From an uncultured Alphaproteobacteria bacterium (lineage in GTDB: Bacteria; Pseudomonadota; Alphaproteobacteria; Acetobacterales; Acetobacteraceae), in contig CAWFYC010000033.1 of the NCBI GenBank assembly GCA_963819855.1, positions 8,326 through 72,325 of the forward strand: DNA of 64,000 bases, given 5' to 3'. The translations under genes were made by a program, and so were the position numbers. Positions 13,146 through 29,422 of the stretch are shown piece by piece. Within the stretch, counting starts at the first letter, position 1. Every line of letters begins with the position of its first letter. Below the pieces are notes generated by a model that saw nothing but the letters and a program-made list of their open reading frames with translations, made no database searches and was not told where the DNA came from.

Positions 13146-14396
13146 ATGAGCTTTCTCGATACGCTCGACAGCATCACCGATCCGGCTGCCCGCACTGGGC
13201 TCTTTTTCGATGCGCTGCGTGCGGACTGGCGCTCCCTGTTTGCCGAACTGCGCGAGACACGGCCTATCCTCGATTTGCCGGTAATGTCGGTCGTCTCGCG
13301 TTGGGCGGACGTGGTGGACCTGTTATCCCGCAACGAGACCTTCCGCGTGACCTACGCCCCGCACATGGATCCGTCAGTAGGGCCGTTCATGCTGGCGCGG
13401 GACGGCGCGGTGCAGAACTGGCGGGACAAGGCGGCCATGCGCACGCTGTTGCGTTGGGACGACCTGCCGGCGATCCGGGCCACGGCGGCCAAGACGGCGT
13501 CCACCGCCCTGAGCGCCGCCACGCAAGGTGCCGGCGGCGTGTTCGACGTCGCCGCGACCGTCTCGCGGCTTGTCCCGCTGAAGATCGTGCAAGACTGCTT
13601 CGGCTTCCCCGGTCCGGACGACGCAACCATGCTCGCCTGGTCACGCGCGACACAGGCGGACATGTTCCACAATCTCATCAACGATCCCGCCGTGCTGCAG
13701 GCGGACATCGCGGCCGGGCAGGCGATGCAGGCCTGGGTGGCGAATTTCGTCGATGCGCGCCAGCCCTGGGCCGATGCGGTGGGTGAGGACACGGTCTCGC
13801 GGCTGCTGCGGCTGACCGGGCAGGGGCTCTCCGGACTCGACCGACAGGGTGTGATCAGCAACATCTGCGGCCTCCTGGTAGGCGCGATCGAGACGGCATC
13901 GCAGGCGATCGTGAACGCGACGGAGCAGATCCTGCTGAACCCGGCGCAAGCGGACCTTGCGACCCGGGCCGCACAGAAAGGCGATAACGCCGCGCTGGAT
14001 GCCATCGTTTGGGAGGCGCTGCGCTTCGCCCCGATGGCAACCTTCGTCCTGAGGGTGGCGGCGCAGCCGGCGGTGATTGCGCCGGGCTCCAGCTACCAGG
14101 TCACGGTGCCGGCAGGGCGGGTGGTGGCCGCAGCAATCGGCTCGGCCATGTTCGACCCGGCGGTGTTCCCGGCGCCCGACGATTTTCAAACCCGCCCGCG
14201 GAACCTCTACATGCACGTGGGATTTGGGGCGCATATCTGCCTGGGCCAGTACGTCGCCTACGAGATCATCCCGGAGGCGATTCGGCAGATTCTGCTGGTA
14301 CCCGGCGTGCACCTGCTGCCGCAGGGCGGGAGCGCCGTGGACAACGCAGGCGGGCCGTTTGCCGAGTCGTTCAAGCTCGGCTTTCGAGCATCCTGA
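13146..14396 (+). CDS. Cytochrome P450
   Basis: The product has the haem-thiolate loop FGFGAHICLGQ, an I-helix acid-alcohol pair (GAIETAS) and about 416 aa. The ATG at 13146 is preceded by GGAAGGTTGGAAAG. Confidence 0.9.
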   Translation: MSFLDTLDSITDPAARTGLFFDALRADWRSLFAELRETRPILDLPVMSVVSRWADVVDLLSRNETFRVTYAPHMDPSVGPFMLARDGAVQNWRDKAAMRTLLRWDDLPAIRATAAKTASTALSAATQGAGGVFDVAATVSRLVPLKIVQDCFGFPGPDDATMLAWSRATQADMFHNLINDPAVLQADIAAGQAMQAWVANFVDARQPWADAVGEDTVSRLLRLTGQGLSGLDRQGVISNICGLLVGAIETASQAIVNATEQILLNPAQADLATRAAQKGDNAALDAIVWEALRFAPMATFVLRVAAQPAVIAPGSSYQVTVPAGRVVAAAIGSAMFDPAVFPAPDDFQTRPRNLYMHVGFGAHICLGQYVAYEIIPEAIRQILLVPGVHLLPQGGSAVDNAGGPFAESFKLGFRAS

Positions 14397-15985
14397 TGCC
14401 GGCGTCGGGCCAACAGCGGGACACCAGCCGCGATGGCTTGCGCAACAAGGTCGAGGCGGCGCTGCTCTCCGGTTTCCAGCCATTGTGGGGGTTCGTCAAC
14501 AAGACGCCCTGGTTGGCCCGTATCGCCAACCGGCTGATCGTCAACAATGCCGTGCTGAAGGCGCCATTCCGGCCGTTGGCGCTGAGCACGCAGGCGTCCT
14601 ATACGAATTGGGCGACACTGACCGATAGGACCTGGTTCAGCCGCTATCTGCCGCCAGCGCCGCAGGACAAGCTGCCACCGGTGGCGGAGGTGGCCAGCCT
14701 GTTCAAGCTGCGCACGGACCGACCGCCGGTGCTCTCCGACCGCTCCACCCTGCTGTTCCCGAGTTTCGCGCAGTGGTTCACCGACGGCTTCCTGATGACC
14801 GACAACGACCGCCGGCGCACCCGCAGCAACCATCAGATCGACCTGTCCCAGCTCTACGGGCTGGACCCGACCGTCACGGCGGTGCTGCGGCGACGCGGCG
14901 AGCAGCCGGGCGACAAGGGCAAGCTCAAGTCCGTCACCTCGGGCAAGGGCGAGTGGGCGCCACCGCTCTACGATGCTGGTGGCGCGAGGGATCCGACATT
15001 CGCGCTCGTGCCGGAGCCGACGCACCTGCCTGGCGATTGGCCAATCGAAAAACGCGCGGCGCTGTTTGCGTTCGGAGGAGAGCGCGCCAATTCCACGGCA
15101 TTTACCGCGGCAATCAACACGCTGTTCCTGCGCGAGCACAACAGCCTGTGCACCATGCTCGAACGGGACCATCCCGGCTGGGACGACGAGCGCGTGTTCC
15201 AGACGGCGCGCAACATCAACATCGTGCTGCTGATCAAGTTGGTGGTCGAGGAATACATCAATCACATCTCGCCATACTGGATGAGGCTGCTGGCCGACCC
15301 GACGCCCGCTTACGCGGCAAGGTGGAATCGGGAGAACTGGATTCCGGTCGAGTTCAACCTGCTCTACCGCTGGCACAGTCTGGTGCCGACCAGCGCGGTG
15401 TGGGGCGGGGCGTCGGTCGACCTGGCTGGGTTGCGCTTCGACAATCGGATGCTTCTGGAAGATGGGCTGGTCGCGGCCCTTGCGGGAGCCAGCCAAACCC
15501 GCGCCTGGCGGATCGGACTGTTCAACACGGCGCCGATGCTGGACATGGTGGAGGTGGCGTCGATACAGCAGGGTCGGGACAACCGTCTAGCCTGCTACAA
15601 CGAGTACCGGGCGCAAATGAAGTATCCGAAGGTGACACGGTTTGAGCAGATCAACAGCGATCCGCTGGTGGTGAGCGAGCTTCGCCGGATCTACTCCGAC
15701 GTGGACCGGATCGAATATTTTGTCGGGCTATTTGCCGAGGAGTTGCCGCCACGCTCGGCTCTGCCGCCGCTGATTGGTCGGATGGTAGCTGCGGACGCGT
15801 TCTCCCACGCGTTGACCAACCCGCTGCTTTCCCCGCACGTTTATCATGCCGGGACGTTCACGACTGCCGGTATGGAAGTGATCGAAAGAACTGCCTCGCT
15901 CGCCGACCTTTTGGCACGCAACGACATTGTCCCCGCTGGAACGCGCGTTTCGATGGAGGCCGACGGCTATCGATCGGTGGCGTAG
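14396..15985 (+). CDS. Animal-haem-peroxidase superfamily protein, fatty-acid dioxygenase (COX / linoleate diol synthase / Ppo)-like
   Basis: EFNLLYRWHSLVP matches the catalytic-Tyr / proximal-His motif of cyclooxygenases (LYHWH) and fungal LDS/Ppo (YRWH). A distal-His candidate lies in RSNHQIDLSQLYG, and RGRDNRLACYNEYR is peroxidase-typical. The ATG shares one nucleotide with the P450 stop (TGATG). Confidence 0.8.
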   Translation: MPASGQQRDTSRDGLRNKVEAALLSGFQPLWGFVNKTPWLARIANRLIVNNAVLKAPFRPLALSTQASYTNWATLTDRTWFSRYLPPAPQDKLPPVAEVASLFKLRTDRPPVLSDRSTLLFPSFAQWFTDGFLMTDNDRRRTRSNHQIDLSQLYGLDPTVTAVLRRRGEQPGDKGKLKSVTSGKGEWAPPLYDAGGARDPTFALVPEPTHLPGDWPIEKRAALFAFGGERANSTAFTAAINTLFLREHNSLCTMLERDHPGWDDERVFQTARNINIVLLIKLVVEEYINHISPYWMRLLADPTPAYAARWNRENWIPVEFNLLYRWHSLVPTSAVWGGASVDLAGLRFDNRMLLEDGLVAALAGASQTRAWRIGLFNTAPMLDMVEVASIQQGRDNRLACYNEYRAQMKYPKVTRFEQINSDPLVVSELRRIYSDVDRIEYFVGLFAEELPPRSALPPLIGRMVAADAFSHALTNPLLSPHVYHAGTFTTAGMEVIERTASLADLLARNDIVPAGTRVSMEADGYRSVA

Positions 15986-16021
15986 GCGACGCGTCCTGTG
16001 GTTGAACGGCCATCAGTCTGG

Positions 16022-16039
16022 GCGGTCGATATCACACCA
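16022..16039 (+). repeat. Right copy of 18-nt direct repeat gcggtcgatatcaYacca
   Basis: It matches 12066-12083 at 17 of 18 positions and overlaps the last codons and stop of the minus-strand DUF4157 gene. Confidence 0.6.
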
Positions 16040-19000
16040 GCGTCTCGAACGCGCCCTTCATCAGCGCTATGGGATCGAGGTGCGGCCGCTTCACATCGAT
16101 CTTCTCGACATTCAGGTCCAGCCCGCCCTTCTCCGACCACTGCAGCGGGATCGCGGCACTAAGCTGCATATCGGGGCCAAACTCGCCAAGTTTTTTCTCC
16201 CACGGGCCAAATTCATGATCGATGTCGAACAGGCCCAGATCGACCCCGACCGTGAACGAGGCGTTGACGCCAAGCTCGAACTTCGGTTGCGCACTGACCT
16301 TGGCGCAGCCGCCGACCGCGAAGCCATCGGCATTGTTCCAGCTCACCGCGACATCGAGCCTGGCCTCGGCCGCGATGCCCAGAGTGCCGTCCAGCCCGAC
16401 GCGTCCCTTGGCGTAGGCGACTGCGACCTGCGCCTTCAGCCCACCGCCCAGATCGAGGGTGAAACCGGCAAACGCCGGCACATGGAACTGCGCGGTGCCG
16501 ACAACCGTTGCCTCTTCCGGCCGATCGAGATCGATCGTCGCGTGCACCTTGGTGTTGCGCAGCATGCCCTTGCCGACACAGGCGTTGAACGAGACATCGG
16601 CATCGGCGAAAGCGAAGATGCCGACGCCAACCGGGCCGACCTTGACACCCCAGATCGGAAAATCAGGCGTCGCGAGATGCAGCAGCGACTTGTGGTAGGC
16701 GAGCTGCGGAAACAGCTCGAAGTCCGGCGGCAGTGCAACCTCGCCATCGAGAATGACGCGGCCGTCCGGTGTGTACTTGATGCCGGCAGTGCCTTGCAGG
16801 ATCTTGCCGAACCGGACGGTGGCCTGACCATCGCCCCAGATCTTCAGCGGACCGACCGGGCCACCCTCGATCGGATTGCCGGCTTCGTCCACGGCACGAT
16901 TGGTCGCGGTGACCTGTAGCCAGCCGCTGGCCGGTCCCTTCCGCACATCGGCTCGGCCCTTGAACAACACGCCCACGCCATCGACCATAATCTCGAGCGT
17001 GCCGCCCGCACCGGCGACGCCAAGCGTCGCCTTGCCGCCGCCGCTGATGCTCCAGACACCGGTCTCGGGGTTGCGCACCGCACGTACCGTCGCTGTGGCG
17101 CCCGACACGCCAGGCAGCTTGTCCACCGGCAGCGGCAGGTCCTTGCCCTCGAGCAACAGTCCGGTCTGCGGCGTATAGCCGGCCGTGATTGTGCCGCCCG
17201 CCAGCAGGCCGCCCAGTTGCAGCGATCCTGTCAGTCCGAAGCTGTCCCGGCTGACGGTGACCGAGACACTGCCGGATTCGACACCAGGCAGTGCGTTCTT
17301 CTTCACGTGGAATTCGCCGGAGCCGGTGAACGTATCGGTCGCAAGATCGTAGTTCACCTTGATCTGCGTCTGGTCGAGGAAGGCGAAATCGAGGTCGAAC
17401 ACGCCGCCGAGTGTGACGTTATCGTTCTCGCCGCGCGCGACGACGGTGCCTTTGCCCACCTTGTCGACGGCGATGTCGGCACTGCCCTGGACGAAGAAGC
17501 CGCTGGCGCCGACGCCGAGGTCGATGGCAGCCGCGGTGACGTGCAACGGGCCGAAGTTCAGTTTTTCGACGGGCAAGGGGAAGCGGAGCATGATATCGGT
17601 GCCCTGCAGCACGATCGGGATGCGCAGGCCCGGCAACAGCGCCTTCGACGACAGGACGTCGCCGGCGCCTTGCAACTCGCCATCCGGCGTGATTTCGATC
17701 CTGGAGAAGCTGATCGGACTCGCCGGACCGAAATCGCTCTCCTTGAACATGCCGGTGATGCTCTCGCGCGTCACGAAGCCGCCAAAGAACAGGTTCGGCG
17801 CGTGCATGACCGTGACAACATCATCAGCCTTGATCAGGTCCGTCTTCTTCGTTCCCGGGAACTTCTTCTTCTTGTATTCGACGTGCAGCTTGGTGATGAC
17901 GTTGTTCTGCTTGTCCGGTTTCGGTGGGTTGAACTCCTCGATCTTGAGGATATCGATGCCGCGGAAGAGATACCCGGGATTGACCAGCGACTTGCCGTCT
18001 GGCGTCAGCCTGAACCGCGTCGGTCTGCCGCCCTCCGGTGTCGGGAAGATGTTGATGTGGGTCGGTCTCGTGTGGCCGGTCTCGTCGAACTTGAAGCCCT
18101 GTTGGAACAGCTCCGGCTCGCTGAGCGCACGGTAGTACTTAAGATGCTTTCCGGTGCCGACATCAGCCCTGGTCCAGTAATCCTTCGGCCGGCCGCTGAA
18201 CGGGCCTTCGGCTACCGTGCCGAATTCGACCAGCCAATTTTCGCGGACCTCCGACACGCCGGCGGGCAGCCTGCCGTCGAGTTCGATCCCTTGATCCTTC
18301 TGAACCTTCTTCTCAGCCTGAGCCTTGGTCAGCACACTCTCAATCTGCTTGCCCCACTGATGCTCGATCTGTGTGCCGATCGATCGATTGTAGCTACGAT
18401 CGAGCAGCCACATGTTGTCGATCGTATTGCTCCCGCCGAGTTGGTCCTCCAGAACATGGTCGGCGTCCACTTCCATCTCGGCGCCGTTCTTTGCCACCAT
18501 CGGGCGTACGACACTGTCATTGCTGGCCAGTTGCGTCACATTGCCGACGATGAGGAATTCCGAACTGGTCGCCTTGAGATCGCCCGTGGTGCCTGCGCGG
18601 CGCATTACGTAGACGCTGTCAGACCCGGTGGTCGTCAGACTGGCGGCATTTTTTTGTCCGCCGATCTCGGCCTTGAGCAGCGGGGCAAGACCGGCGGAGT
18701 AGGTCTTGCGCACGTAGTCAACCCAGACGTCCCGTGCAGCCTCGAGGCCACGTTCCTTGCGCGAAGGCTGTGGCAGGCGCTGGTAAGGCTTGCCTTCCTC
18801 CGGCAGCGCGCCATGTGCCGCGGCAGCCGGTGCATCTGTTCCACCGGTGCCCTTGAGTGTCTTGCCGATGCGCGGCAGCAGTAGTTCAGGGACCTTGATG
18901 CGACCGCCCGCGCCCTTTGTCTGCGTCGTCAGATCGACTTCCCATTCCGGCTTGGCGCGTCCATCGGTCAACTGCTTGGTCTTTGCCGTCGGAGCGGCGG

Positions 19001-19763
19001 GCGGTGTCTGTGTCGGCACCGGCGTTTTGCCCTGCACGAGCCGGAGCTTGTTCACCTCGCACGGGTTCGCCGCGCGCATCGCACGGCAATCCTCGATCGT
19101 CTGTGCCACCGTGTCGCGGCGTGCCATCGCAATGCCTGCCGCGCGGTCGTGCTGCACGACATGCGTCGCCTCGTGCGCCATCAGGTGGGTATCGTGTTCG
19201 CTCTGACCCGGACCGAGCACGATATTGGAGCCGAGTGCATAGGCACGCGCGCCGAGCGCCGCGGCGGACGCGCCCGCCGTCGGTCCATCGTGAACCCGCA
19301 CATGATCGAGCGGCGCCCCCATGCGGGTTTCCAGTTTGCCACGCATGCCTGGCGCGATCGGCCGTCCGGGCTGGCTAAGTGTCGCATGCACCAACTCGGT
19401 CGGATCGTTCGCAGCCTGCGATGCCGCGTCGGCCGGCGCCCGCCGCAGCGCACCGGTATCGCGGACCTGGTGTGTTGCATCGGTGCAGCCGCTGCACGCG
19501 CGATGGATGGTATCCATCGGCGCGTTGGGATGCGGCGCGCCGGCGTCCAGCACCTGATGCGCGTCCTGGCCCGATGCCACCTTCGCGGCGACGCGTTCGG
19601 CGTGGTGTTCCTCGGGATCGTGCTCGCCACCGACCACGAGGCGGGCTCGCAGATAGCGGGGCACCGCGGGCGCCGCCGCCGCCGCGGGCTTCGGCATGTC
19701 CTTGGCCGGCGCGCGATTAAGTCGCGTCGCACCCGGCTTCACCGCGACCGCTGCCGCGTTCAT
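16032..19763 (-). CDS. eCIS-associated DUF4157 (HExxH) domain protein, 1243 aa, putative cargo/effector
   Basis: The N-terminal region (MGAPLDHVRVHDGPTAGASAAALGARAYALGSNIVLGPG...HLMAHEATHVVQ) is the DUF4157 signature. A central D-H...N...N motif (VDADHVLEDQLGGSNTIDNMWLLDRSYNRSIG) follows, and the C-terminal roughly 550 aa are Gly/beta-rich. The start overlaps the ATPase stop (ATGA). Confidence 0.8.
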   Translation of the reverse strand: MNAAAVAVKPGATRLNRAPAKDMPKPAAAAAPAVPRYLRARLVVGGEHDPEEHHAERVAAKVASGQDAHQVLDAGAPHPNAPMDTIHRACSGCTDATHQVRDTGALRRAPADAASQAANDPTELVHATLSQPGRPIAPGMRGKLETRMGAPLDHVRVHDGPTAGASAAALGARAYALGSNIVLGPGQSEHDTHLMAHEATHVVQHDRAAGIAMARRDTVAQTIEDCRAMRAANPCEVNKLRLVQGKTPVPTQTPPAAPTAKTKQLTDGRAKPEWEVDLTTQTKGAGGRIKVPELLLPRIGKTLKGTGGTDAPAAAAHGALPEEGKPYQRLPQPSRKERGLEAARDVWVDYVRKTYSAGLAPLLKAEIGGQKNAASLTTTGSDSVYVMRRAGTTGDLKATSSEFLIVGNVTQLASNDSVVRPMVAKNGAEMEVDADHVLEDQLGGSNTIDNMWLLDRSYNRSIGTQIEHQWGKQIESVLTKAQAEKKVQKDQGIELDGRLPAGVSEVRENWLVEFGTVAEGPFSGRPKDYWTRADVGTGKHLKYYRALSEPELFQQGFKFDETGHTRPTHINIFPTPEGGRPTRFRLTPDGKSLVNPGYLFRGIDILKIEEFNPPKPDKQNNVITKLHVEYKKKKFPGTKKTDLIKADDVVTVMHAPNLFFGGFVTRESITGMFKESDFGPASPISFSRIEITPDGELQGAGDVLSSKALLPGLRIPIVLQGTDIMLRFPLPVEKLNFGPLHVTAAAIDLGVGASGFFVQGSADIAVDKVGKGTVVARGENDNVTLGGVFDLDFAFLDQTQIKVNYDLATDTFTGSGEFHVKKNALPGVESGSVSVTVSRDSFGLTGSLQLGGLLAGGTITAGYTPQTGLLLEGKDLPLPVDKLPGVSGATATVRAVRNPETGVWSISGGGKATLGVAGAGGTLEIMVDGVGVLFKGRADVRKGPASGWLQVTATNRAVDEAGNPIEGGPVGPLKIWGDGQATVRFGKILQGTAGIKYTPDGRVILDGEVALPPDFELFPQLAYHKSLLHLATPDFPIWGVKVGPVGVGIFAFADADVSFNACVGKGMLRNTKVHATIDLDRPEEATVVGTAQFHVPAFAGFTLDLGGGLKAQVAVAYAKGRVGLDGTLGIAAEARLDVAVSWNNADGFAVGGCAKVSAQPKFELGVNASFTVGVDLGLFDIDHEFGPWEKKLGEFGPDMQLSAAIPLQWSEKGGLDLNVEKIDVKRPHLDPIALMKGAFETLV

Positions 19764-21700
19764 CCGTTTGCCGCGCGGGCCGGGACCAGCGCCAGATCGG
19801 GCGGCAGCCGGCGGCCAAGCTTGCGGTACTCGCGCGCCAGCGCTGCGGCCAGCGCGACCGCACCGATCGGCACACCGGCGGGCACTGTGGCGGCGGCCGA
19901 CAGCACGGCGTTGCGGATGCCGCCGCCGGCGAGATCGCAGTAGCTGGCCAGATGGTGCAGCACGTGCTCATCGGGCGCGCGCGTCCCGAGATGGCTTTGC
20001 CAAAGTCGCAGCCGCTCCTCGTAGCCTGGCAGCGGGAAGTCCATCACCACGTCGAGGCGCCGCCAGAACGCCGGATCGATCCGTGCCTTGTTGTTGGCGG
20101 TCAGGATGACGATGCCGTTGTGGTTCTCGATCCGCGTGAGCAGGAAATTGGTGAGCATGTTGGCGTAGCGTTCACCGGTCTCCGAGGCGTCGCTGCGCCG
20201 GCCAAACAGTGCGTCGGCCTCGTCGAACAGCAGCACGACGTCGGCCGCTTCGGCGTGATCCAGCAACTGGCCCAGGTTCTTCTCGGACTCGCCGATGTAC
20301 TTGTTCATCACCGCGCCAAGGTCGCAGCGGAACAGCGGCGCGCCAAGCGCGGTGGCGACGTAGCTGGCGGCGAGCGTCTTGCCGGTGCCGCTCTCGCCGG
20401 CGAAGAACGCGCGTACGCCACGCGTCGCGCCGCTCGCCAGCGACGGTCCGGTGCCGTGCCAGACCGTCTCGCGCTGCCGGCAACGCGAGATCAGCAATGT
20501 AAGATCGCGTTCCAGCGCTTCGGGCAGCACCAGCGCATCGCGCCCGACGCGGCGCGGCACCGGTTGTGCCAGCGTGCGCAACGCATCCGGCGCGAGGCGG
20601 CGGCGCGCCTCGGCCACATCGGCCGCAGTGACAGATGCTTCGCCGGCAAGGCCATGCGCGGCGCGTGCCACGCGTTCGATCCCACCTGGGAACAGTACCG
20701 CACCGGGCGCCAGCAGCGCGGCGAGATCGGCGTTCCCCAGCGTCTCGCACCATAGCCGCGTGCGCGTCGCCACATCGGGTGGTTCGAGCGTTGCGTCGAG
20801 CCATTGCTGGCCCTCGATTGCACCGTGCCCGCCAGCGAGCACGATGGCCGGAAGCGGCGCCCCATCGGGACGTGTCAGCGCGAGGCTTTCGCCTGCGCTG
20901 AGCGGCGCGCGCACCACAGGCAGCCAGCCAGCCGCGCGGCAGGCGGCCCCGAATGCAAGGTCGCCCTGGTAGGTCGCGGCCTGCGTTTCCAGCGGCACAC
21001 AGCCGAGACGCCTCGCGATTGCCGCAGCCAATGTGGCGCGTCCCGAACCGGGTGGCCCGCGCAGCACCAGCCCATCGGCACCTGATCCCGTCAGCAGCGC
21101 GGCGAGGCGCACTGCATCCGGCGTGTCCGCCGACGGTTCCAGTCGCCGGCCGCCAGGCCAGTCGGCCTCACCGCCGCGCAACGCGCGCCAGAGCTCTGGT
21201 CGCACCCGGAGCTGACGCTGCGGCAACAGGCCGCTGCCATCGGCGATCAGCAGACCGGTTGCGCACAATCGCCCGGCGACAAGATCGAGCGCATCGACGC
21301 CCGTCACCCCAAACAATTGCTGCCACAGGTCCAGCGCGAGGTGGATGCCGGGCCGCCCCGCCGGCTCCGGCGCCTGGAAAGCCGCGACCACCAGACCGAT
21401 CAGGTGGCTGCTCTCCGTGCCACCCGCGAGCCCGAGCAGGAACAGCTCATGCTGCCCGAGATGAAGCTGCGCGGTCAGCCTCGGAAATGGCCCGGCAGCG
21501 CGCTGCCAGGCGGCATCGAGCGCGGCGAGACGCTCAGACCAGGTGAGCGTTGCCAGCTCGGGCGCACGAGCCTGCGCGGTGCGGCGCAGCAGGCCGAATA
21601 CCGGCACGTCCTCGGTCGGAGCGACGAGGTTGGCGTACTCCAGCAGCCCCTGCTCGACCAGCAACTCCAGCAGCAGCGACGCAGGCGGCTCGCGCGGCAT
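19760..21700 (-). CDS. eCIS AAA+ ATPase (Afp15/Pvc15-like)
   Basis: The C-terminal AAA module has Walker A GESGTGKT, Walker B VVLLFDEADALF, sensor LTANN and RRLD. An upstream degenerate P-loop (GPPGSGRAT) is also present. The ATG shares one nucleotide with the upstream stop. Confidence 0.85.
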   Translation of the reverse strand: MPREPPASLLLELLVEQGLLEYANLVAPTEDVPVFGLLRRTAQARAPELATLTWSERLAALDAAWQRAAGPFPRLTAQLHLGQHELFLLGLAGGTESSHLIGLVVAAFQAPEPAGRPGIHLALDLWQQLFGVTGVDALDLVAGRLCATGLLIADGSGLLPQRQLRVRPELWRALRGGEADWPGGRRLEPSADTPDAVRLAALLTGSGADGLVLRGPPGSGRATLAAAIARRLGCVPLETQAATYQGDLAFGAACRAAGWLPVVRAPLSAGESLALTRPDGAPLPAIVLAGGHGAIEGQQWLDATLEPPDVATRTRLWCETLGNADLAALLAPGAVLFPGGIERVARAAHGLAGEASVTAADVAEARRRLAPDALRTLAQPVPRRVGRDALVLPEALERDLTLLISRCRQRETVWHGTGPSLASGATRGVRAFFAGESGTGKTLAASYVATALGAPLFRCDLGAVMNKYIGESEKNLGQLLDHAEAADVVLLFDEADALFGRRSDASETGERYANMLTNFLLTRIENHNGIVILTANNKARIDPAFWRRLDVVMDFPLPGYEERLRLWQSHLGTRAPDEHVLHHLASYCDLAGGGIRNAVLSAAATVPAGVPIGAVALAAALAREYRKLGRRLPPDLALVPARAANG

Positions 21701-23070
21701 CAGTGCAGCCGCGGATAGTGGAAGCGCACGACCCGCCCAAGCCACGGCACCCACGCAGGGTCGAGGTCGAGGCCGGCACGGCGGATACGGATGTCGATCG
21801 TGGTCGCGTGCAGGTCGAGATCGACATGGCTTGCCGTCACCCGCAGCAGGCCAGGCTGGCGCAGGAACCCGGGCCAGATCTCGCCGAATTCGTAGAGCTC
21901 CGCAGCCGTGGCGGCCAGCTCTGCGATAAATCCAGCCGCCGGCACCGGTTGTTCCATCTGTTCGGCGAGGAACGCCATCAGTTCGTCATCCTCCAGCGCG
22001 CCAGCCACGCGCGCCAAATCGTGCAGCACCTGCCAACCACTCGGCGGCTCGCCGTCCGACCATTCCAGTAATCGCTGCATCAGATCGAGCCGGTTGAGGG
22101 TATTGATCAGGAACAACACGCCGCCGAAATCGGTTGGAATTCCGCGCGCGAGTGATGGGTGGGGGGTCTGCGGCGGTTCAGTTGTGACTGGGCGCACTGT
22201 GTCCGCCGCTTTTCGTGATGCAGCTGATTTAGCTGCGCCAATCGTCATCCCCGCGAAAGCGGGGACCCAGGCGGCAACTGGGTCCCCGCTTGCGCGGGGA
22301 TGACGATTGGAGGCATCGCTCGCTGCGCCTACAGCAGCAGGCCGCCATGCCTGCGCGAGCGCCGCCAGTGCCGCTGCCGCGTTTGGCCCAGTGGCCAACG
22401 CGATCGGGTCCCAGCGCAACAATGACAGGACCGCGGCGGCGTGGACCGCGACACGCGGCGCGGCTGCCTGGCCAAGGGCCTCGCGCCAGAACCTCACCGC
22501 CGGTTGCAGCCGTATCGGCGGCGGCGGCACCTCGACGTCTTCGATTCTATCGGGCAGCGTCGCCCGTGTTGCCCAGCCGATCGCGCCGAGCAGTACGGCC
22601 GCCGCGTCCGGCGTGAGCTGGCGCCAGATCGGGACGAGCAACCCCTCGTCATGCCACTGGTCGAGCACCGCCCATGTCTCCAGGGGCCGTTCCGCCAGCA
22701 GGCCAATCGCCGCCGCCGCGCCGGACCACCGATTCAACACCCCAAGCCGGCGCCAGTACCAACGGGTCGCCGCGACACCGCCCAGCAGATCGCGCGCGAA
22801 GCTGCTGGCGACCGCGGTGAAATCCGGGAACACCACGACATCCGGATCGGCGCCCACCGTCGCCAGCCGGGCCAGCGCCCGCGCGAACTCCGGCGCTACC
22901 GATCCGCCGCGCGTCGCGATCGTCATCCGACGCACGAACACCCAGGGCCGTACCGACGGTGTCGGGCAGGCGGCAAGCTGCCCCCGGACCGACGCCGCGC
23001 TGCCTGGCCCACGCAGCGCCACCCGCCCGATCGCGACCATGTCGCCTGCCAGGACCGCGGGGATCGCCAT
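21700..23070 (-). CDS. Hypothetical eCIS protein in the tape-measure (Afp14) position, 456 aa
   Basis: The Ala/Leu/Pro-rich ORF lies directly upstream of the AAA+ ATPase and is translationally coupled at both ends. It contains the in-frame REP-like element. The functional call rests on position only. Confidence 0.4.
   Translation of the reverse strand: MAIPAVLAGDMVAIGRVALRGPGSAASVRGQLAACPTPSVRPWVFVRRMTIATRGGSVAPEFARALARLATVGADPDVVVFPDFTAVASSFARDLLGGVAATRWYWRRLGVLNRWSGAAAAIGLLAERPLETWAVLDQWHDEGLLVPIWRQLTPDAAAVLLGAIGWATRATLPDRIEDVEVPPPPIRLQPAVRFWREALGQAAAPRVAVHAAAVLSLLRWDPIALATGPNAAAALAALAQAWRPAAVGAASDASNRHPRASGDPVAAWVPAFAGMTIGAAKSAASRKAADTVRPVTTEPPQTPHPSLARGIPTDFGGVLFLINTLNRLDLMQRLLEWSDGEPPSGWQVLHDLARVAGALEDDELMAFLAEQMEQPVPAAGFIAELAATAAELYEFGEIWPGFLRQPGLLRVTASHVDLDLHATTIDIRIRRAGLDLDPAWVPWLGRVVRFHYPRLH
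22243..22306. repeat. REP-like compound palindrome inside a coding region
   Basis: cgtcatccccgcgaaagcggggacccag (22243-22270) pairs with ctgggtccccgcttgcgcggggatgacg (22279-22306). On the minus strand it is read through as ...[20 protein letters not shown]... Confidence 0.85.
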
Positions 23071-26000
23071 CAGGTCGCCACGGCCGCCAGCGTGAACCCG
23101 CTGACATCGGTGATGTCGGTACGGAAACTCGCCACCAGCCGGGCCGCGGTGCCATTGGCGTCGTTGTCCTCGACACTCACCGTCCCGATCAACGTCCGCG
23201 TGGCGTCGAACAGGTGCAGCAGCGTGCCGATCGCCGGCGGGCGGTTCAGCACCGCGCGCACCGGATCGCCGATGCGAAAGCCCGGTGTGGTGGCGGTGAC
23301 GCTGCCCGACAGCACCTGCTGGGGATCGCCATGCGCTGCCGCGATCACCAGCGCGCGCATCAGATTGCTTAGCGCCGGCACCGCGGCGGCACTGGGCGCC
23401 TTGGCCAACTGACCGCCCAGCCACGCCACCAGCGTTGCGATTCCGCGATGCGCGGCGAACGCGTCGGCGGCGTCGACACCGATCAGCGGCCATTGCTCCG
23501 GTGCGAGTGCCGGCAGTGTGCCGGTGCGCGCCTGCTCGTACAACGCGAAGCGGGTGGAGGGCGGCAAAGCATTCAGCTTCTCCGCCACGCAGCCGCATGC
23601 CGCTTCCATCCGGCGGCGGAACGCCTCGATCGCCAGCCGCAGCGGATTGGCCGGCAGCGGCAGGATGTCGGGTAGAGCGAAGATCCGTGCCGCGGCGCGC
23701 TGCGTCTCGGCGAGCGAATCAGACATGGTCAGGGAGAGCGGGCGAAGCTGCGAGGTGAACAGGCCCTGGTTCGCCTGGTGCAGTGCCAACAGGTCCGGCG
23801 CAGCCGGCCCGCTGCCGAACGCGGTGGCATCCAGCAGCGATGGCGAACGGTCGGCCAGCCGAGCCGCGCGGCTGCTGACCAGCCGGGACAACCCGTTGCG
23901 ATCCGGCAGGTAGGGCCAGAGCGGTCGCACCGGACGGAAATCCCACAACGGCAGTTCAAGTACCCAGTCGAGGAACGGCTGTACCACCGGCGGCGGCCCG
24001 TCATGGTCGGTGGCGCAACCGGGTACGAGGTCGCCGGGATCGGCGGCAATCAGCGGACGCGGTGCCGGCAGGTCGGTGAGCACCGGCGTCTGACGGCTGC
24101 GGATGTAGAACAGCCCCACCGCGTCGCCCAGCACATTGCTGCGCTTCGCCGTTGCCGCCGCGATGCGATCGACTTCCTCCTGCACCAGCCGCTGCGCGGC
24201 GGCATAGTCGCCGGCGGGTATCGCGGCGGCACGTATCGCGTCGATCACGGCCTGTCTGCCGTCATCGACGTCGCGCTGCGCCGCATCGATTGCCGCGGCG
24301 AGCGCGGTCAGCCGGTCGCGGTAGATCCGATACCGAGCCTCGATGATCTGGCTGTTGCGCTCCGCGGCATCGATCTGCGCGAGCAGGTCGCGTCCGACGA
24401 TCAGCATGTTGGAGTAGGCGACATGTTCGGCGTCCATGCCCGTGGGCGGGGGCGGGAACACCGTCGCTGCCGGCACGGTCAGGTTGATCTGCTTGGCCAG
24501 CTCGATGAGGTTGTCCCGGCCCTTCTGGAGCACCTGCAAGGCGCTGTCGGCTGGCGTGATGTGAGCCGCAGCGCCGTAGTTCTGCGGCTGGAACTGGAAC
24601 TGCGGATCGGTGCTGATGGCACCGAGTTGATCGGCGACATTGGCTGCCGCGTCCTGGCTTCGGCCCAACAGCGAGCCGGCGGCGCTGCCGGTGACGTTGA
24701 CCGGCACTCTGGTTCGGCCAGGACCCGGCGGCGCCGTGCCGTTTATACGGATGCCTCCGGCAGTCGCTCGTTCGGTCGCCGTCGTACTGACACCACGCGG
24801 TGCCATGCGTGGCGGGAGAGCCGCCAGTGCCGGAGCAAGCGAAGGGCTGCCGCTGGCCGCCGGAGTAGGGGTCAGCCTGATGAACGGCAGCATGCGCGCA
24901 ACCTGCATGCCCTTGCCATCAGCAGGAACGCCGCCGGCAAGTGCGGACCCGAAGCTCGACAACGTATCCAGGTGGGCGCGCTGCAACGCAATCAGCCGGT
25001 CGTGGCCATCCAGCAGGATTTCCAGCCGCCGCGCCGCCAGCGCCAGGACCGCCTGTATCGTGTGCAGCAGGATCAGGCGCAGCAGCGCGCCTTCGCTCGC
25101 CGGATTGCTGTCGTCTGTCGGGTCGGTGGTGCCGGTGGCGTGCAGCCAGTCCTGGTAGGCGGAATGGCCGGGCAGGGCAGGGACCAGCGGCCGCAGCACC
25201 GGGTCCGGGGCGACCGTTGCGGCCGGCTCGCTGTCGAGGATGCGATAGCCGTTGGCGGCAAGCTGCGCAGTGAGCGTGGTCGCGTCGGGCGGATCGGGCG
25301 TCACAATCGCCTGCTGCGTCAGCCAGGCGGTGATGCCGTCGATCGTTCCGGCCGTGTCGAGCAATGCGAGGAAGGGCACATCGGGCTGCAGCAGCAGGAC
25401 GGTCAGTGTATTGGGATCGTTCACCGCCAGCCGCAGGAAGTTCAGCGTGCGCCGGTTCGCATCGCTGGCGTGGGCGCCGAGGCCGCCATACAGCGCGCTC
25501 CATGCGTGGTGCGCGGCGATGAAGCCGGTCTGCGTCGCGACATAGGCCTGGAACAGATCCACCGGCAGCAGCGGATCGGCGCGCGGACTGTCGAGCAGGT
25601 CCGGCTGCCACTCCTGATCCGGCACCGCGAGCAGCAGCAGCACGCCATCCTCGGTCGGCGATTGCAGGTCGATCGGCGCCCGCACCAGTTCACGGGCGAT
25701 GACACCGCGCGCCTCGCTCGCCCGGATCGTCGCCAGGTCGACATCCATCCCGGCCGGCCAGAACGGGCAGGAGACAGCGGTGGTGTCCGGTTGCAGCAGG
25801 AAACCGAGCGGCAGTTCCCCGGCGGCGGGCACAAAGCGCACCTGGCCACGGATCGTGGCCAGCTCGGCCGAGGTGAACGGCGCCGCGCCATGTGCCGCGA
25901 CGGCGAGCGCCAGTGCCTCGCGGACCTGCGCCAGCAACAGTCCTTGCAGACCGGCTGGTGCGGCGGGCAGCCGGCCGGCAGCGGCGCTGATCACGACCGG

Positions 26001-26684
26001 CGCGCCGCCGAGCACGAGGACCAATCCAATCGGCAGCGTGCCCCCGGCGATGCCGGCGAGTTGCGTCAAGGTCAGCCCCGCGGCGACGCGGTTGAGATAG
26101 AGCGTGATGTCGGCCGCGCCGGCCGCAGCCGAGGGTGGCGGCACGGGCGCCGGCACCGGTGCCGACAGCAGCACCTCGAGGAAGCTGTCGCGCCGCTCGT
26201 CCAGCGTGGGGTCGATCGTGCCGCGGTCGCGCGGGTCCGGCGGGGGACCGTGCACCGTTTCGAACGCGATCGGCTGCACGGTGAGCAGGTAGGCGCCGTC
26301 GGCCAGATTTGCCGGCGCAGCCGGAACGCGTGCGCGGACCGCGACCAGATCGGCCCAGGCGACAGTGACCGAAGCGGTCAGGCGCACGGCACGGCCATCC
26401 AGTGTCACGCCGGTGCCCGGCTGCACTGTGATCGGCGGCAGCGTTGTTCCACCGGTCGCGGCCCAATGTGCCGGCTGCAACGCGAAGCCGTCCAACACGC
26501 CCGCACCCTGCGCCGCGCCAAGCTCTAGCAGGCGATGATCCAGGTACTGGCCTTGCAGCAGAAACTCGGCGCTGCCCAGGTTGCGGCGGGGAAAGTAGTG
26601 GATGCGTGTGCCGTCCGGCTCGACCTGGATCGGCTCATGCAGATGGATCGGCTGGCCTTGCGGCCGGAACAGCAGGGCGGTCAT
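23070..26684 (-). CDS. Large hypothetical eCIS protein (1204 aa), paralog 3 of fibre-like triplet
   Basis: The N-terminal roughly 90 aa share a motif with the two upstream genes (F.xxxL.xAExLxxxQYLDHRLLELGxxxGxGVLDGF...ITVQPGTGVTLDGRAV). The start overlaps the upstream stop (ATGA). Confidence 0.6.
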   Translation of the reverse strand: MTALLFRPQGQPIHLHEPIQVEPDGTRIHYFPRRNLGSAEFLLQGQYLDHRLLELGAAQGAGVLDGFALQPAHWAATGGTTLPPITVQPGTGVTLDGRAVRLTASVTVAWADLVAVRARVPAAPANLADGAYLLTVQPIAFETVHGPPPDPRDRGTIDPTLDERRDSFLEVLLSAPVPAPVPPPSAAAGAADITLYLNRVAAGLTLTQLAGIAGGTLPIGLVLVLGGAPVVISAAAGRLPAAPAGLQGLLLAQVREALALAVAAHGAAPFTSAELATIRGQVRFVPAAGELPLGFLLQPDTTAVSCPFWPAGMDVDLATIRASEARGVIARELVRAPIDLQSPTEDGVLLLLAVPDQEWQPDLLDSPRADPLLPVDLFQAYVATQTGFIAAHHAWSALYGGLGAHASDANRRTLNFLRLAVNDPNTLTVLLLQPDVPFLALLDTAGTIDGITAWLTQQAIVTPDPPDATTLTAQLAANGYRILDSEPAATVAPDPVLRPLVPALPGHSAYQDWLHATGTTDPTDDSNPASEGALLRLILLHTIQAVLALAARRLEILLDGHDRLIALQRAHLDTLSSFGSALAGGVPADGKGMQVARMLPFIRLTPTPAASGSPSLAPALAALPPRMAPRGVSTTATERATAGGIRINGTAPPGPGRTRVPVNVTGSAAGSLLGRSQDAAANVADQLGAISTDPQFQFQPQNYGAAAHITPADSALQVLQKGRDNLIELAKQINLTVPAATVFPPPPTGMDAEHVAYSNMLIVGRDLLAQIDAAERNSQIIEARYRIYRDRLTALAAAIDAAQRDVDDGRQAVIDAIRAAAIPAGDYAAAQRLVQEEVDRIAAATAKRSNVLGDAVGLFYIRSRQTPVLTDLPAPRPLIAADPGDLVPGCATDHDGPPPVVQPFLDWVLELPLWDFRPVRPLWPYLPDRNGLSRLVSSRAARLADRSPSLLDATAFGSGPAAPDLLALHQANQGLFTSQLRPLSLTMSDSLAETQRAAARIFALPDILPLPANPLRLAIEAFRRRMEAACGCVAEKLNALPPSTRFALYEQARTGTLPALAPEQWPLIGVDAADAFAAHRGIATLVAWLGGQLAKAPSAAAVPALSNLMRALVIAAAHGDPQQVLSGSVTATTPGFRIGDPVRAVLNRPPAIGTLLHLFDATRTLIGTVSVEDNDANGTAARLVASFRTDITDVSGFTLAAVAT

Positions 26685-28462
26685 CCGGCCAGCCCAAGCG
26701 CGGTAAGTGCAGCGACGTTGATGCCCAGCGGGGTAAGTTGCGCCAGGTGCGGATTGAGCTGCGCCTTGGACCCGGTCTGCATGTTGGTGATCTGCTGGCG
26801 CGCCGCGGTGAGCTGATTGTTCGCCGTGGTGAGCTGACCGGTCACGGCGGTGAGCTGCGCGTTGGCGGCGGACAGCTGCTGGGTGGCATTCTGGTTCACT
26901 CGAGTCCAGTCGGCGATGATCGCGTCCGTCCTGGTCGGATCGGCGATGCCGCTCCCGGAGGCAACCCCGGCGGCGGTCAGTTGCGTCGCCACCTTCGCCA
27001 GCACGCCTTGCAACGCGGCCACCTGCGTCTGCGCTGCCTGTCGCTGCGTGTCCGCGGTGGCGGCGCGCGCATTGGCCGCGGCCAGCGCATCCTGTGCATC
27101 CTTCACCTGCTGGCGAAGCTGTACCAGCGCCGGATCATCCGGCGGCAGCCCGCTCGGCGGCTCGGTGAACCCGGCGGCCAGGCGCGCGACGGAGAGCCCG
27201 CCGATGCTGACATCGGGCTGCCGCAGCAGATAGCGCAGCGGCGCCTGCACCTGCGGCCACGCCCGCGTCCACGCATCGGCAGTAGTCGGCCGTGCGGGCG
27301 GTGGCAGCCGTCCCGGCAGGCGCAGGATCAGCGGATCGATCCGTGACAGTGCGATGGTCGGATAGGGCTGGAATGCGGCCGGTGCCGGTTGCGTGGGGGA
27401 GCCCTCCAATGCCCGCATCAGCAGGCCGAAATCGGCGGGCGCCAGCGGTGCCAGCACGATGACCTGCGCCGGCGCGCCTGACGCGAGGTCGATCGGCGGC
27501 AGCTTCATCGCCTCGCTGGTCAGCACGTTCAGCTCATCGGCGCGCACCGGCGCGATTGCCACCTCGATCTGCTCGGGGAAGAAGCTCTGTGCCCCATTGG
27601 CCGGATCGATCGCCGGCTTGGGCAGCGGACCCGCCGGTGGCAGCAGCGACAGGTAGTCCGTCGCGCGGAACGACGCACCGGGCGCCGCGGTGAGATCGGC
27701 GAACAGGGCGGCATAAGACCGCGCCAGGTCCTGCTGCACCAGGTTGTCGGCATCGAGCGGACGCAGCCCGTGCGTCACCAGCGACGCATCGAACCATACC
27801 GGAGTGCCGCGCCGCATTGCCACGACGCCGAGTGCCACGCAATCCGGCGGCAGCGACCGATCGATGCCGTTGCCGGCGAAACTGCGCGCCAGCGCGGCGC
27901 GTGCCTGGAATGTGTTGCCCGCCGGCAACGGCTGGCGCAGCGGCACCAGCGCGATCTCGACGAAGTCGGTAATGGTGTCGAAGCTGGTGGTGCGTCGGCT
28001 GGCCAGATCGCGCGGGAACACATCCGCCGCGCCGGTGCCGGTCTCGGTCAGCATCAGCACCACCGCATACAGCGCGTCACGAAACCCGACGAACGCGGTG
28101 TTGCGCGCCATCACCGCGCCCATGTCGGAGAGGTCGACCTGGAGCGGCTGGCCCGCCGCGCGGTTCAGCGTCAGCACGCGCCCGGACGGGGCGATGGCGC
28201 GTCCGCCGGCCACGTTCAGCACAGTGCCGGTCAGCGTGGCCTGAAGGCCGGAAATGATCCCGTCGCCCGCGGCGAGGCCGAGATCGAGCAACCGCCGATC
28301 GAGATAGGCGTAGTCGCGATCCAGGTCCTCGGCGGTCAGCAGACGGCCATCGAAGTAGTTGGTGCGGCTGAGCAGCGGTTCGCCATGCAGCACGCGCAGC
28401 ATCGTGTCGTCGACACCGGCCGCCGTGCTGATGGGGAGAGGACGGAATGTGTCGCTTGGCAT
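26681..28462 (-). CDS. Hypothetical eCIS protein (593 aa) with C-terminal coiled coil, paralog 2 of fibre-like triplet
   Basis: The N-terminal motif is YFDGRLLTAEDLDRDYAYLDRRLLDLGLAAGDGIISGL...LNVAGGRAIAPSGRVL. The C-terminus carries a Q/A/T heptad-like run (QQLSAANAQLTAVTGQLTTANNQLTAARQQITNMQ). Confidence 0.6.
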   Translation of the reverse strand: MPSDTFRPLPISTAAGVDDTMLRVLHGEPLLSRTNYFDGRLLTAEDLDRDYAYLDRRLLDLGLAAGDGIISGLQATLTGTVLNVAGGRAIAPSGRVLTLNRAAGQPLQVDLSDMGAVMARNTAFVGFRDALYAVVLMLTETGTGAADVFPRDLASRRTTSFDTITDFVEIALVPLRQPLPAGNTFQARAALARSFAGNGIDRSLPPDCVALGVVAMRRGTPVWFDASLVTHGLRPLDADNLVQQDLARSYAALFADLTAAPGASFRATDYLSLLPPAGPLPKPAIDPANGAQSFFPEQIEVAIAPVRADELNVLTSEAMKLPPIDLASGAPAQVIVLAPLAPADFGLLMRALEGSPTQPAPAAFQPYPTIALSRIDPLILRLPGRLPPPARPTTADAWTRAWPQVQAPLRYLLRQPDVSIGGLSVARLAAGFTEPPSGLPPDDPALVQLRQQVKDAQDALAAANARAATADTQRQAAQTQVAALQGVLAKVATQLTAAGVASGSGIADPTRTDAIIADWTRVNQNATQQLSAANAQLTAVTGQLTTANNQLTAARQQITNMQTGSKAQLNPHLAQLTPLGINVAALTALGLAG

Positions 28463-29409: not shown

Positions 29410-29422
29410 GGCGTTCTCGCGT

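Follow-up and report, generated by a model that had tools for sequence, protein, structure and literature searches.

Within the 64,000-nucleotide stretch of uncultured Acetobacteraceae DNA that was analysed here (the window), the minus-strand gene at 16032..19763 is the last of an operon for an extracellular contractile injection system (eCIS), and it encodes a protein of 1243 aa with a DUF4157 domain. Very probably the protein is an eCIS cargo and a member of the family of Cgo2, a cargo protein of the AlgoCIS particle of Algoriphagus machipongonensis. We are about as confident that a D-H...N...N motif in its central domain forms a true HNH (beta-beta-alpha-metal) fold. For the further step, that the central domain is a catalytically active nuclease effector, we see the chances as evenly balanced. 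The reading that we favour overall, and consider reasonably probable, is that of a Cgo2-family cargo that is delivered to a target and acts there as an HNH nuclease. The features discussed below are collected in Table 1.

A probable HNH element in the central domain

The D-H...N...N motif is contained in VDADHVLEDQLGGSNTIDNMWLLDRSYNRSIG (residues 432-463; nucleotides 18375-18470, minus strand). An AlphaFold2 (AF2) model of residues 280-650 (m671150a14c59) has a mean predicted local distance difference test score (pLDDT) of 86.2 and a predicted TM-score (pTM) of 0.81. As assigned by DSSP, it contains a strand at 432-436 that ends in D435-H436, a second strand at 451-455 with N450 just before it, and a helix at 456-490 with N459 in its first turn; pLDDT is 94-97 across all three elements. 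H436 would be the putative general base in such an arrangement, D435 and N459 would be ligands of a divalent metal, and N450 would brace the hairpin.

Conservation of the motif was followed in 281 homologues (169 and then 112 further ones), mostly less than 50% identical to one another, which were aligned to a profile of the region after DUF4157. H436 (n=279), N450 (n=279) and N459 (n=280) are invariant at every aligned, non-gap position; D occurs at position 435 in 278 of 279 aligned homologues, and E439, Q441 and G463 are nearly invariant. Because the four key residues are conserved in some 280 homologues that are mostly so divergent, the motif is not a chance match.

Matches to known nuclease families are weak for the protein itself. 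When the full protein was searched, residues 427-487 gave sub-threshold Pfam matches (Endonuclea_NS_2, E=0.014; HNH_5, E=0.3), and residues 429-487 gave a weak NCBIfam match to the HNH part of IscB (E=0.043). The isolated segment (residues 405-500) of 51 diverse family members was also scanned with Pfam. For the query segment alone the matches are again sub-threshold, with E=3.2e-4 and 21.4 bits (cut-off 27) for Endonuclea_NS_2 (PF13930), E=0.0085 and 16.4 bits for HNH_5, E=0.044 and 14.3 bits for Ntox15, and 12.3 bits for HNH. PF01844 (HNH) matches 33 of the 51 family segments at E<=1 and five of them at E<=1e-3, the best at 3.7e-8. Membership in the HNH group therefore rests on transitive homology, the query being sub-threshold and its family members matching PF01844.

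A profile of the 51 segments gave nine marginal matches in the PDB (E 0.088-1.1), seven of which are to Cas8f-HNH or to the HNH domain of Cas9. The St1Cas9 alignment places the D-H, N and N columns of the family on the DH, LAN and TAN of the Cas9 HNH domain. Neither the full protein nor an 11-sequence alignment matched anything meaningful among PDB sequences. A Foldseek search of the PDB with the 371-residue central model found nothing significant (no match with E<0.6); five of the 30 weak matches are to Cas8f-HNH, with E=3.5-9.5 for a 371-residue query that dilutes a motif of about 40 residues, and their local root-mean-square deviation (rmsd) over about 40 columns is 2.1-2.3 Å in four cases and 5.5 Å in the fifth.

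The resemblance to beta-beta-alpha-metal toxin modules that the sequence-only reading had seen in the spacing of the motif is thus borne out: the invariant residues, the predicted beta-beta-alpha arrangement, the transitive match to Pfam HNH and the PDB profile matches all identify an HNH/His-Me-finger element. Two checks that it had proposed gave divided answers. The profile search of the central motif, run on residues 405-500, reached a strong match in family members but left the query itself below threshold, and structure prediction of the central region gave a confident beta-beta-alpha element but no significant structural match.

The HNH domains of Cas9 and IscB and of Cas8f-HNH, which are His-Me fingers of the H-N-N type, have the same motif layout as the window protein, with matches that are marginal. 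They differ from it in that the surrounding domain is unrelated, that nothing in the window protein points to an RNA guide or CRISPR, and that the Cgo2-type motif has a conserved E439 and Q441 of its own. A small stand-alone canonical HNH endonuclease (EVDHVVPRGKGGPDTVDNCRILCRSHN), encoded at L012:26-781 (+) in a metagenome-assembled genome (MAG) of Anaeromyxobacteraceae, was found with the back-translated motif of the family and is 32% identical to query residues 427-525 by tblastn, a weaker observation that agrees with the HNH assignment.

A large, colinear family that includes Cgo2

An exhaustive profile search with residues 215-1243 returned at least 1690 clusters at 50% identity with E<=1e-3, 635 of them at E<=1e-30, and the best 150 representatives are nearly all full-length matches of about 1150-1400 aa. 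Word-indexed homologue searches had under-reported the family (35 and 16 matches), and a contig scan with back-translated patterns, which are clade-specific, found only five loci; the size of the family was revealed by the exhaustive search and by a Bacteroidota-seeded profile, which matched 2027 proteins at E<=1e-10. Flavobacterium, Tenacibaculum, Echinicola, Cyclobacterium and Algoriphagus are among the named genera in that set, and relatives are also found in MAGs of Alphaproteobacteria, Sphingomonadales, Egibacteraceae and Ilumatobacter.

One relative, P0289, is a 1228-aa protein of A. machipongonensis whose locus (L013) reads CIS_TMP, a 498-aa DUF4157 gene, P0289, TPR, AAA. Because the organism, the length of 1228 aa and the 498-aa neighbour, which has the length of Cgo1, all agree, P0289 is Cgo2 (ALPR1_12690). 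BLASTP aligns residues 652-1237 of the query with Cgo2 at 28% identity over 596 aa (E=3e-66), and the DUF4157 domains at E=3e-9. The corresponding motif of Cgo2 is IDHKQELQL..GIDNLHLLSKEANRESG, and this HNH motif aligns with that of the query by profile. Neither an HNH motif nor a repeat-built beta tail in Cgo2 is mentioned in the eCIS and AlgoCIS literature that was searched, and no activity is assigned to the C-terminal domain of Cgo2 in the searched AlgoCIS literature.

The protein is no idiosyncratic toxin but part of a very large family that is conserved over its full length and includes AlgoCIS Cgo2, which the sequence-only reading had not recognised. Conservation extends over the whole region after DUF4157 in the best 150 representatives. 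The protein is a conserved cargo or effector common to the family rather than a polymorphic toxin in which one module has been exchanged, and the lack of a cognate immunity gene agrees with this status.

The sequence-only reading had further described the middle of the gene as visibly less G+C-rich and Lys-rich, which suggested to it a separately acquired module. Both compositional observations are correct: G+C is 0.52-0.62 across residues 400-660 compared with about 0.70 at the 5' end of the gene, and residues 601-660 contain 18% Lys. The acquisition that they were taken to suggest is contradicted by G+C at third codon positions (GC3), which is flat along the gene, and by the colinearity of the region after DUF4157 across the family. 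Since the dip lies in the first and second codon positions, it reflects an abundance of Lys, Asn, Ile, Phe and Tyr. Residues 601-660 are poorly conserved and gappy in an otherwise colinear family alignment.

A modular effector of the polymorphic-toxin kind, whose central nuclease segment would have been acquired separately and in recent times, would be consistent with the lower G+C in the gene centre and with the frequent joining of DUF4157 to diverse toxin domains via long linkers (PMC8213781). However, GC3 is 0.73-0.88 along the whole cargo gene, like the 0.80-0.89 of the other operon genes; the best 150 representatives are colinear and full-length after DUF4157, with at least 1690 clusters matched; the low-G+C stretch contains the most conserved motif of the family; and an immunity gene is absent. 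Horizontal acquisition of the central segment is rejected on the grounds of GC3 and colinearity, and the modular reading, which these same two observations largely refute, is scarcely credible.

Some family members have other architectures. The profile matches include giant relatives of 2250-2640 aa, for example P0056 (2408 aa) and P0171 (2639 aa), and each of these two, the proteins scanned, has two eCIS_core domains. In P0056 the second eCIS_core (residues 1374-1451) directly precedes the Cgo2-like region, which begins at about 1468. The giant members look like two DUF4157 cargo proteins fused in tandem. As a precedent for a nuclease domain on a DUF4157 protein, fusion of DUF4157 to PF13930 or Ntox15 recurs (P0017, P0032 and P0027).

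Downstream neighbours and the question of immunity

The sequence-only reading had placed the cargo gene at the end of the eCIS operon, 46 nt from a convergent peroxidase gene and with no room for a downstream immunity gene, and had taken this to argue against a self-toxic intracellular nuclease or for a non-bacterial target. The distance is exact according to the open reading frame (ORF) coordinates, and a terminator scan recognised no terminator-like hairpin in the gap. In the closest relatives the downstream genes are unrelated (an opp transporter, sigma-54 activators, penicillin amidase). An 83%-identical homologue (L007) has a convergent opp ABC transporter where the window has the peroxidase, and convergent sigma-54 activators follow the gene in two Alphaproteobacterial MAGs. 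The gene therefore marks the edge of the eCIS island, and no immunity gene travels along with it. The absence of a downstream immunity gene is upheld by these neighbours as well as by the gap, but the argument built on an empty slot applies to this clade only, since in distant relatives a TPR gene occupies the position.

This TPR gene encodes a protein of 289-346 aa, and in five distant loci it is the next gene downstream of the Cgo2-like one (Table 1). The five TPR proteins are mutually homologous (1e-23 to 1e-114), and may serve the cargo as chaperone or adaptor. A TPR homologue was found neither in the 64-kb window nor in loci belonging to the query's subclade, where the HNH residues nonetheless stay invariant. 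The gene is not mentioned in the AlgoCIS literature that was searched.

The three Bacteroidota loci among the five (L013-L015) are syntenic, with CIS_TMP, variable small DUF4157 genes, a constant Cgo2-like gene, TPR and AAA. The small DUF4157 proteins are of 498 aa in the first locus, of 607 aa and 515 aa, with PG_binding_1, in the second and of 748 aa in the third. In these loci the Cgo2-like gene resembles a core component, and the variable DUF4157 genes resemble polymorphic effectors.

The closest named relatives, from MAGs of Novosphingobium, Alphaproteobacteria and Sphingomonadales (L001, L004 and L006), are 41-53% identical to the query. Upstream of these homologues are proteins of about 760-860 aa, a DUF6519/Beta_helix protein of about 1200 aa and a protein of 227-352 aa, the last of which gives a PASTA match at two of these loci (weak in L004, and none on record for L001). 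The AAA gene is not adjacent in any of them.

The C-terminal beta region

The large Gly- and beta-rich C-terminus noted in the sequence-only reading is real: Gly makes up 14.7% of the last 550 residues, and an AF2 model of residues 600-1243 (mb08348406ab2; mean pLDDT 81.5, pTM 0.49) is almost all antiparallel beta. The first part of the region is an array of beta-hairpin repeats. Residues 800-869 and 870-939 align in hhalign with a probability of 98.6% (E=1.3e-15), further window pairs give 80-97%, and LPGVxxGxVxV occurs at 825 and again at 883; weaker internal matches in profile-profile self-comparison span from about 690 to about 1185. The second part is a beta-meander with strands of up to 34 residues, pLDDT mostly 80-92 in the same model.

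In a Foldseek search of the PDB with the C-terminal model, LptD was the best match (E=7e-5, probability 1.0), followed by SlpA of Deinococcus, VDAC, porins, ApoB100 and MACPF pores; TM-scores to the barrels are 0.13-0.30 and rmsd exceeds 20 Å, that is, the similarity is local and to a model of pTM 0.49. Nothing significant was found in the BFVD viral library. The Ala/Pro-rich N-terminus lacks the hydrophobic core of a signal peptide, as judged by composition, no dedicated signal-peptide predictor having been run. The protein is without hydrophobic helices, its longest hydrophobic run being an internal one of 9 aa, and the aromatic C-terminal beta-signal is absent from the helical C-terminus, which ends ...AFETLV. 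A true outer-membrane protein is rejected on account of the lack of a signal-like N-terminus and of a beta-signal and of the low TM-scores, and an RHS/Tc-toxin cocoon on account of the absence of any such structure from the top 50 PDB matches.

We read the C-terminus, from the model, as a large beta-meander with barrel-like local geometry that stands outside the LptD, SlpA, VDAC and porin families. The long antiparallel beta-meander is common to all, but the window protein differs from those families in its low TM-scores to them, its lack of a signal-like N-terminus, its helical end in ETLV and its hairpin repeats of about 30 aa. That the beta domain is membrane-active seems doubtful to us.

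A related alternative is that the protein is chiefly a translocator or pore-former, whose C-terminal beta repeats insert in the target membrane and either permeabilise it or let variable DUF4157 effectors that are injected along with it pass through; the HNH element would be accessory, regulatory or inactive. Several observations agree with this. The beta domain of about 600 aa is the longest conserved part of the family, as the alignment with Cgo2 reflects; its hairpin repeats look amphipathic; and its best structural matches are large beta-barrels and lipid-binding beta-sheets. The Cgo2-like gene is constant in Bacteroidota loci where the small DUF4157 neighbours vary, and a TPR gene is next downstream in five distant loci, which recalls type III secretion translocators, whose chaperones are TPR proteins. 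Cgo2 alone is, moreover, not reported to be toxic. We nevertheless consider this alternative unlikely. The TM-scores, rmsd and pTM given above amount to local beta-meander similarity only, membrane activity is not reported for any family member, and a translocator leaves unexplained why D-H-N-N is the most invariant feature after DUF4157.

Loading, delivery and action of the cargo

In AlgoCIS, Cgo1 and Cgo2 fill the inner tube's lumen and are largely lost on contraction, although some Cgo2 peptides stay; particles without Cgo1 and Cgo2 still assemble, and only the lumen filling drops (Xu et al. 2022, PMC8894135). The N-terminal domain of Cgo1 and Cgo2 is disordered and required for loading, whereas DUF4157 and the C-terminal domain are dispensable for the loading of Cgo2, a step that Alg15, an AAA+ protein, mediates (PROCIS preprint 10.64898/2026.05.27.728243).

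The window protein has a comparable N-terminus. The gene had been said to start with DUF4157; PF13699 (eCIS_core, formerly DUF4157) with HEATHVVQ is present, but a 135-aa Ala/Pro-rich region comes first. This region has few hydrophobic residues and is probably disordered, judging from its composition and by analogy with the N-terminal domain of Cgo1 and Cgo2. It contains a conserved motif (consensus 'RL.VG..D..E..A..VA') in which G45, D49, E52, A55 and A59 are invariant in alignment A1, and Cgo2 has a counterpart, FQAKLNVGQPGDKYELEADQMAEQV. The PF13699 score of 73.2 bits (cut-off 22 bits) and the position of the gene at the end of an eCIS operon confirm the protein as an eCIS-associated DUF4157 protein. 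Within HEATHVVQ (residues 197-204) and the residue before it, A196, H197, E198, H201 and Q204 are invariant in the same alignment.

By analogy with AlgoCIS, the N-terminal 135 or so residues and their conserved motif would direct the cargo to the adjacent AAA+ ATPase, the cargo would be threaded, largely unfolded, into the inner tube's lumen, and contraction of the sheath would expel it. After refolding in the target, the central domain may act as a metal-dependent HNH nuclease, as its sequence suggests. More speculatively, the beta-hairpin-repeat domain could aid association with or passage through a membrane, and the HExxH domain could process or refold the cargo. The producer is probably protected because it keeps the cargo unfolded or sequesters it, or because it synthesises the protein a short time before lysis.

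A number of points weigh against delivery of an active nuclease, chiefly the marginal statistics of the query itself and the absence of reported toxicity for Cgo2. The Pfam nuclease matches of the query are all below the gathering scores (21.4 against 27 bits for the best), the HNH matches of the central domain in Foldseek have E=3.5-9.5, and those of the PDB profile are marginal at 0.088-1.1. The invariant D-H-N-N could equally bind metal or nucleic acid without cleavage. When Cgo2 was expressed in E. coli no toxicity was reported, and only Cgo1 was reported to kill (PMC8894135). Retargeted AlgoCIS particles, in an unstated cargo state, showed no detectable cytotoxicity towards either bacterial or mammalian cells. 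Finally, tblastn of the window operon proteins against the loci of the closest named relatives (L001, L004 and L006) found no shared upstream genes, and those loci may not be eCIS.

The lumenal position of Cgo2 and its conservation also bear on whether the protein could be a structural or assembly factor, such as a lumen plug, scaffold or tube stabiliser, that keeps an ancestral HNH fold. Its conservation is like that of a core gene and it has no immunity gene, and Cgo2 occupies the tube lumen, with some peptides remaining after contraction (PMC8894135). Against this, AlgoCIS assembles without Cgo1 and Cgo2 (PMC8894135), a separate tape-measure gene (CIS_TMP) is present in the examined Bacteroidota loci L013-L015, and a scaffold role does not readily account for residues of catalytic type being so strictly conserved. 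We regard a structural role as very unlikely.

Still less probable, in our view, is an action on the producer, in which the HNH nuclease would cut the cell's own DNA at lytic release or promote the release of extracellular DNA, and for which no immunity would therefore be needed. It is true that eCIS are released by lysis and that toxins without immunity may contribute to it, as has been discussed (PMC8213781), and that the Streptomyces davawensis CIS with the DUF4157 nuclease Tme has been linked to extracellular DNA release (PMC11126660). Yet the packaging of Cgo2 in the lumen and its loss on contraction point to delivery (PMC8894135), and no growth defect is reported for Cgo2 in E. coli.

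The nuclease and membrane readings could also be combined. We can imagine, as a rather improbable scenario, that Cgo2-family proteins are self-translocating nucleases and the one conserved payload of many eCIS. The beta repeats would then refold after ejection into a barrel-like conduit in the target membrane, giving passage to the HNH domain in its unfolded state and perhaps also to variable DUF4157 effectors packaged with it. A dedicated TPR chaperone, encoded by the next gene downstream in most lineages, would keep the translocator, which would be prone to aggregate, soluble until it reaches the AAA+ loader, similar to the dependence of type III secretion translocators on TPR chaperones, and the clade of the window would have dispensed with the chaperone.

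Comparison with known systems

Two known CIS proteins are pertinent to the favoured reading of a delivered HNH nuclease. AlgoCIS Cgo2 shares with the window protein the N-terminal region, DUF4157, the HNH-like motif, the beta domain of about 600 aa and nearly the same length (1228 and 1243 aa), and each is encoded in an eCIS cluster with an AAA+ ATPase. The two are only 28% identical, and the window protein is known from its gene alone. The gene order also differs, in that the AAA gene precedes the cargo, which is last, in the window, whereas AlgoCIS has the order TMP, Cgo1, Cgo2, TPR, AAA; unlike AlgoCIS, the window has no second DUF4157 gene and no TPR partner.

Endonucleases of the DNA-entry (EndA) type have a His-Me-finger fold. 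A DUF4157 CIS effector with such an EndA-like nuclease is Tme of S. davawensis (BN159_7576), which is toxic in E. coli and degrades DNA, and whose toxicity needs the catalytic His (PMC11126660). Like the window protein, Tme is very large, bears DUF4157, is associated with a CIS and has a nuclease or nuclease-like domain. Tme is however about 2250 aa long and has predicted transmembrane helices, tape-measure-like regions and its nuclease at the extreme C-terminus (PMC11126660), whereas the HNH core of the window protein is central (residues 432-490), there are no hydrophobic helices, and the beta-repeat domain follows. The eCIS-associated toxins (EATs; Geller et al. 2021, Danov et al. 2024) combine a DUF4157 handle with diverse C-terminal toxin domains; in the window protein, by contrast, the entire region of about 1000 aa after DUF4157 is one conserved family.

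Proteins bearing DUF4157 are the signature cargo of eCIS. Cgo2-like proteins are the most widespread large DUF4157 cargo, and Cgo2 itself, the best studied, has so far been localised and has served engineering as a loading handle. We suggest that the present analysis gives a cargo of unassigned function a concrete nuclease hypothesis, which extends to all of the Cgo2 family and is testable by point mutation. What it adds lies at the level of the family, namely the near-invariant HNH site, the hairpin-repeat beta domain and the TPR partner in distant lineages; for the locus in the window alone, the outcome is an ordinary annotation of a conserved eCIS cargo gene of the Cgo2 type. Two practical implications follow the same lines. 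A terminal DUF4157 gene should not be assumed to be a polymorphic toxin, and in engineered AlgoCIS or PROCIS particles the native Cgo2 may be a nuclease, which would then have to be removed or inactivated.

Gene and operon setting

The cargo ORF begins with ATG and overlaps the stop of the AAA ATPase gene. The ATPase is 43% identical over 174 aligned aa to the product of the AAA gene in the AlgoCIS locus. According to Pfam, the minus-strand genes between 19.7 and 44.6 kb encode Pvc16_N, sheath, two tube-family proteins (tube and CIS_tube), a gpD hub, an OB-fold spike (Phage_base_V), Baseplate_J, Tail_P2_I and AAA; judged by these matches, they are a complete, bona fide eCIS set. With this set upstream and the convergent gene beyond it, the cargo gene is indeed the terminal gene of an eCIS operon. 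A search of the 64-kb window found no second DUF4157 gene and no other HNH-like gene besides the cargo.

Table 1. Positions of the cargo gene, its domains and motifs, its neighbours in the window, and the TPR genes of other loci
Feature	Position	Strand	Basis or remark
Cgo2-family DUF4157 eCIS cargo, coding sequence (1243 aa)	16032..19763	-	ORF list, Pfam eCIS_core, full-length homologues, BLASTP with Cgo2
N-terminal Ala/Pro-rich region, putative loading sequence (residues 1-135)	19359..19763	-	24% Ala, 10% Pro
Conserved N-terminal motif LRARLVVGGEHDPEEHHAERVAAKV (residues 38-62)	19578..19652	-	Alignment A1
eCIS_core/DUF4157 (residues 136-208)	19140..19358	-	PF13699, E=2e-20, 73.2 bits
HExxH (HEATH, residues 197-201), putative zinc-binding metallopeptidase-like motif	19161..19175	-	Sequence reading
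Central alpha/beta domain with embedded HNH core (residues 286-650)	17814..18908	-	AF2 model
HNH/beta-beta-alpha-metal core (residues 432-490)	18294..18470	-	AF2/DSSP, invariant residues, Pfam, PDB profile
Lys-rich, low-G+C variable insert (residues 601-660)	17784..17963	-	18% Lys, G+C 0.52, GC3 0.83
Beta-hairpin repeat array (residues ~690-975), unit ~30 aa, period ~58-62 aa	16839..17696	-	hhalign, AF2
C-terminal beta-meander ending in a short helix (residues 976-1243)	16035..16838	-	AF2
ATGA overlap of cargo start and AAA ATPase stop	19760..19763	-	Reads GGATGAAC
AAA+ ATPase (Afp15/Pvc15/Alg15-type), presumed cargo loader	19760..21754	-	PF00004, E=6.5e-31
Gap from cargo stop to the end (15985) of the convergent An_peroxidase (animal haem peroxidase) ORF	15986..16031		46 nt, without ORF
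Downstream TPR gene	L003:14162-15202
Downstream TPR gene	L010:3101-3907
Downstream TPR gene, Algoriphagus (AlgoCIS)	L013:13697-14566
Downstream TPR gene, Echinicola	L014:11559-12428
Downstream TPR gene, Flavobacterium	L015:11739-12707

Some further genes of the window may be noted. Convergent with the eCIS operon runs a pair consisting of a cytochrome P450 ORF (13089-14396, plus strand) and the overlapping or adjacent ORF of the animal-type haem peroxidase (14009-15985, plus strand). Between the baseplate genes and AAA, the operon contains four large minus-strand ORFs (21700-23598, 23070-26684, 26681-28462 and 28489-29442) that have no Pfam match at E<=1e-3; a tail fibre, a tape measure or a cap may be among their products. 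In the ORF of 632 aa, the last 50 aa resemble the product of the gene upstream of AAA in L003 (E=4e-9).

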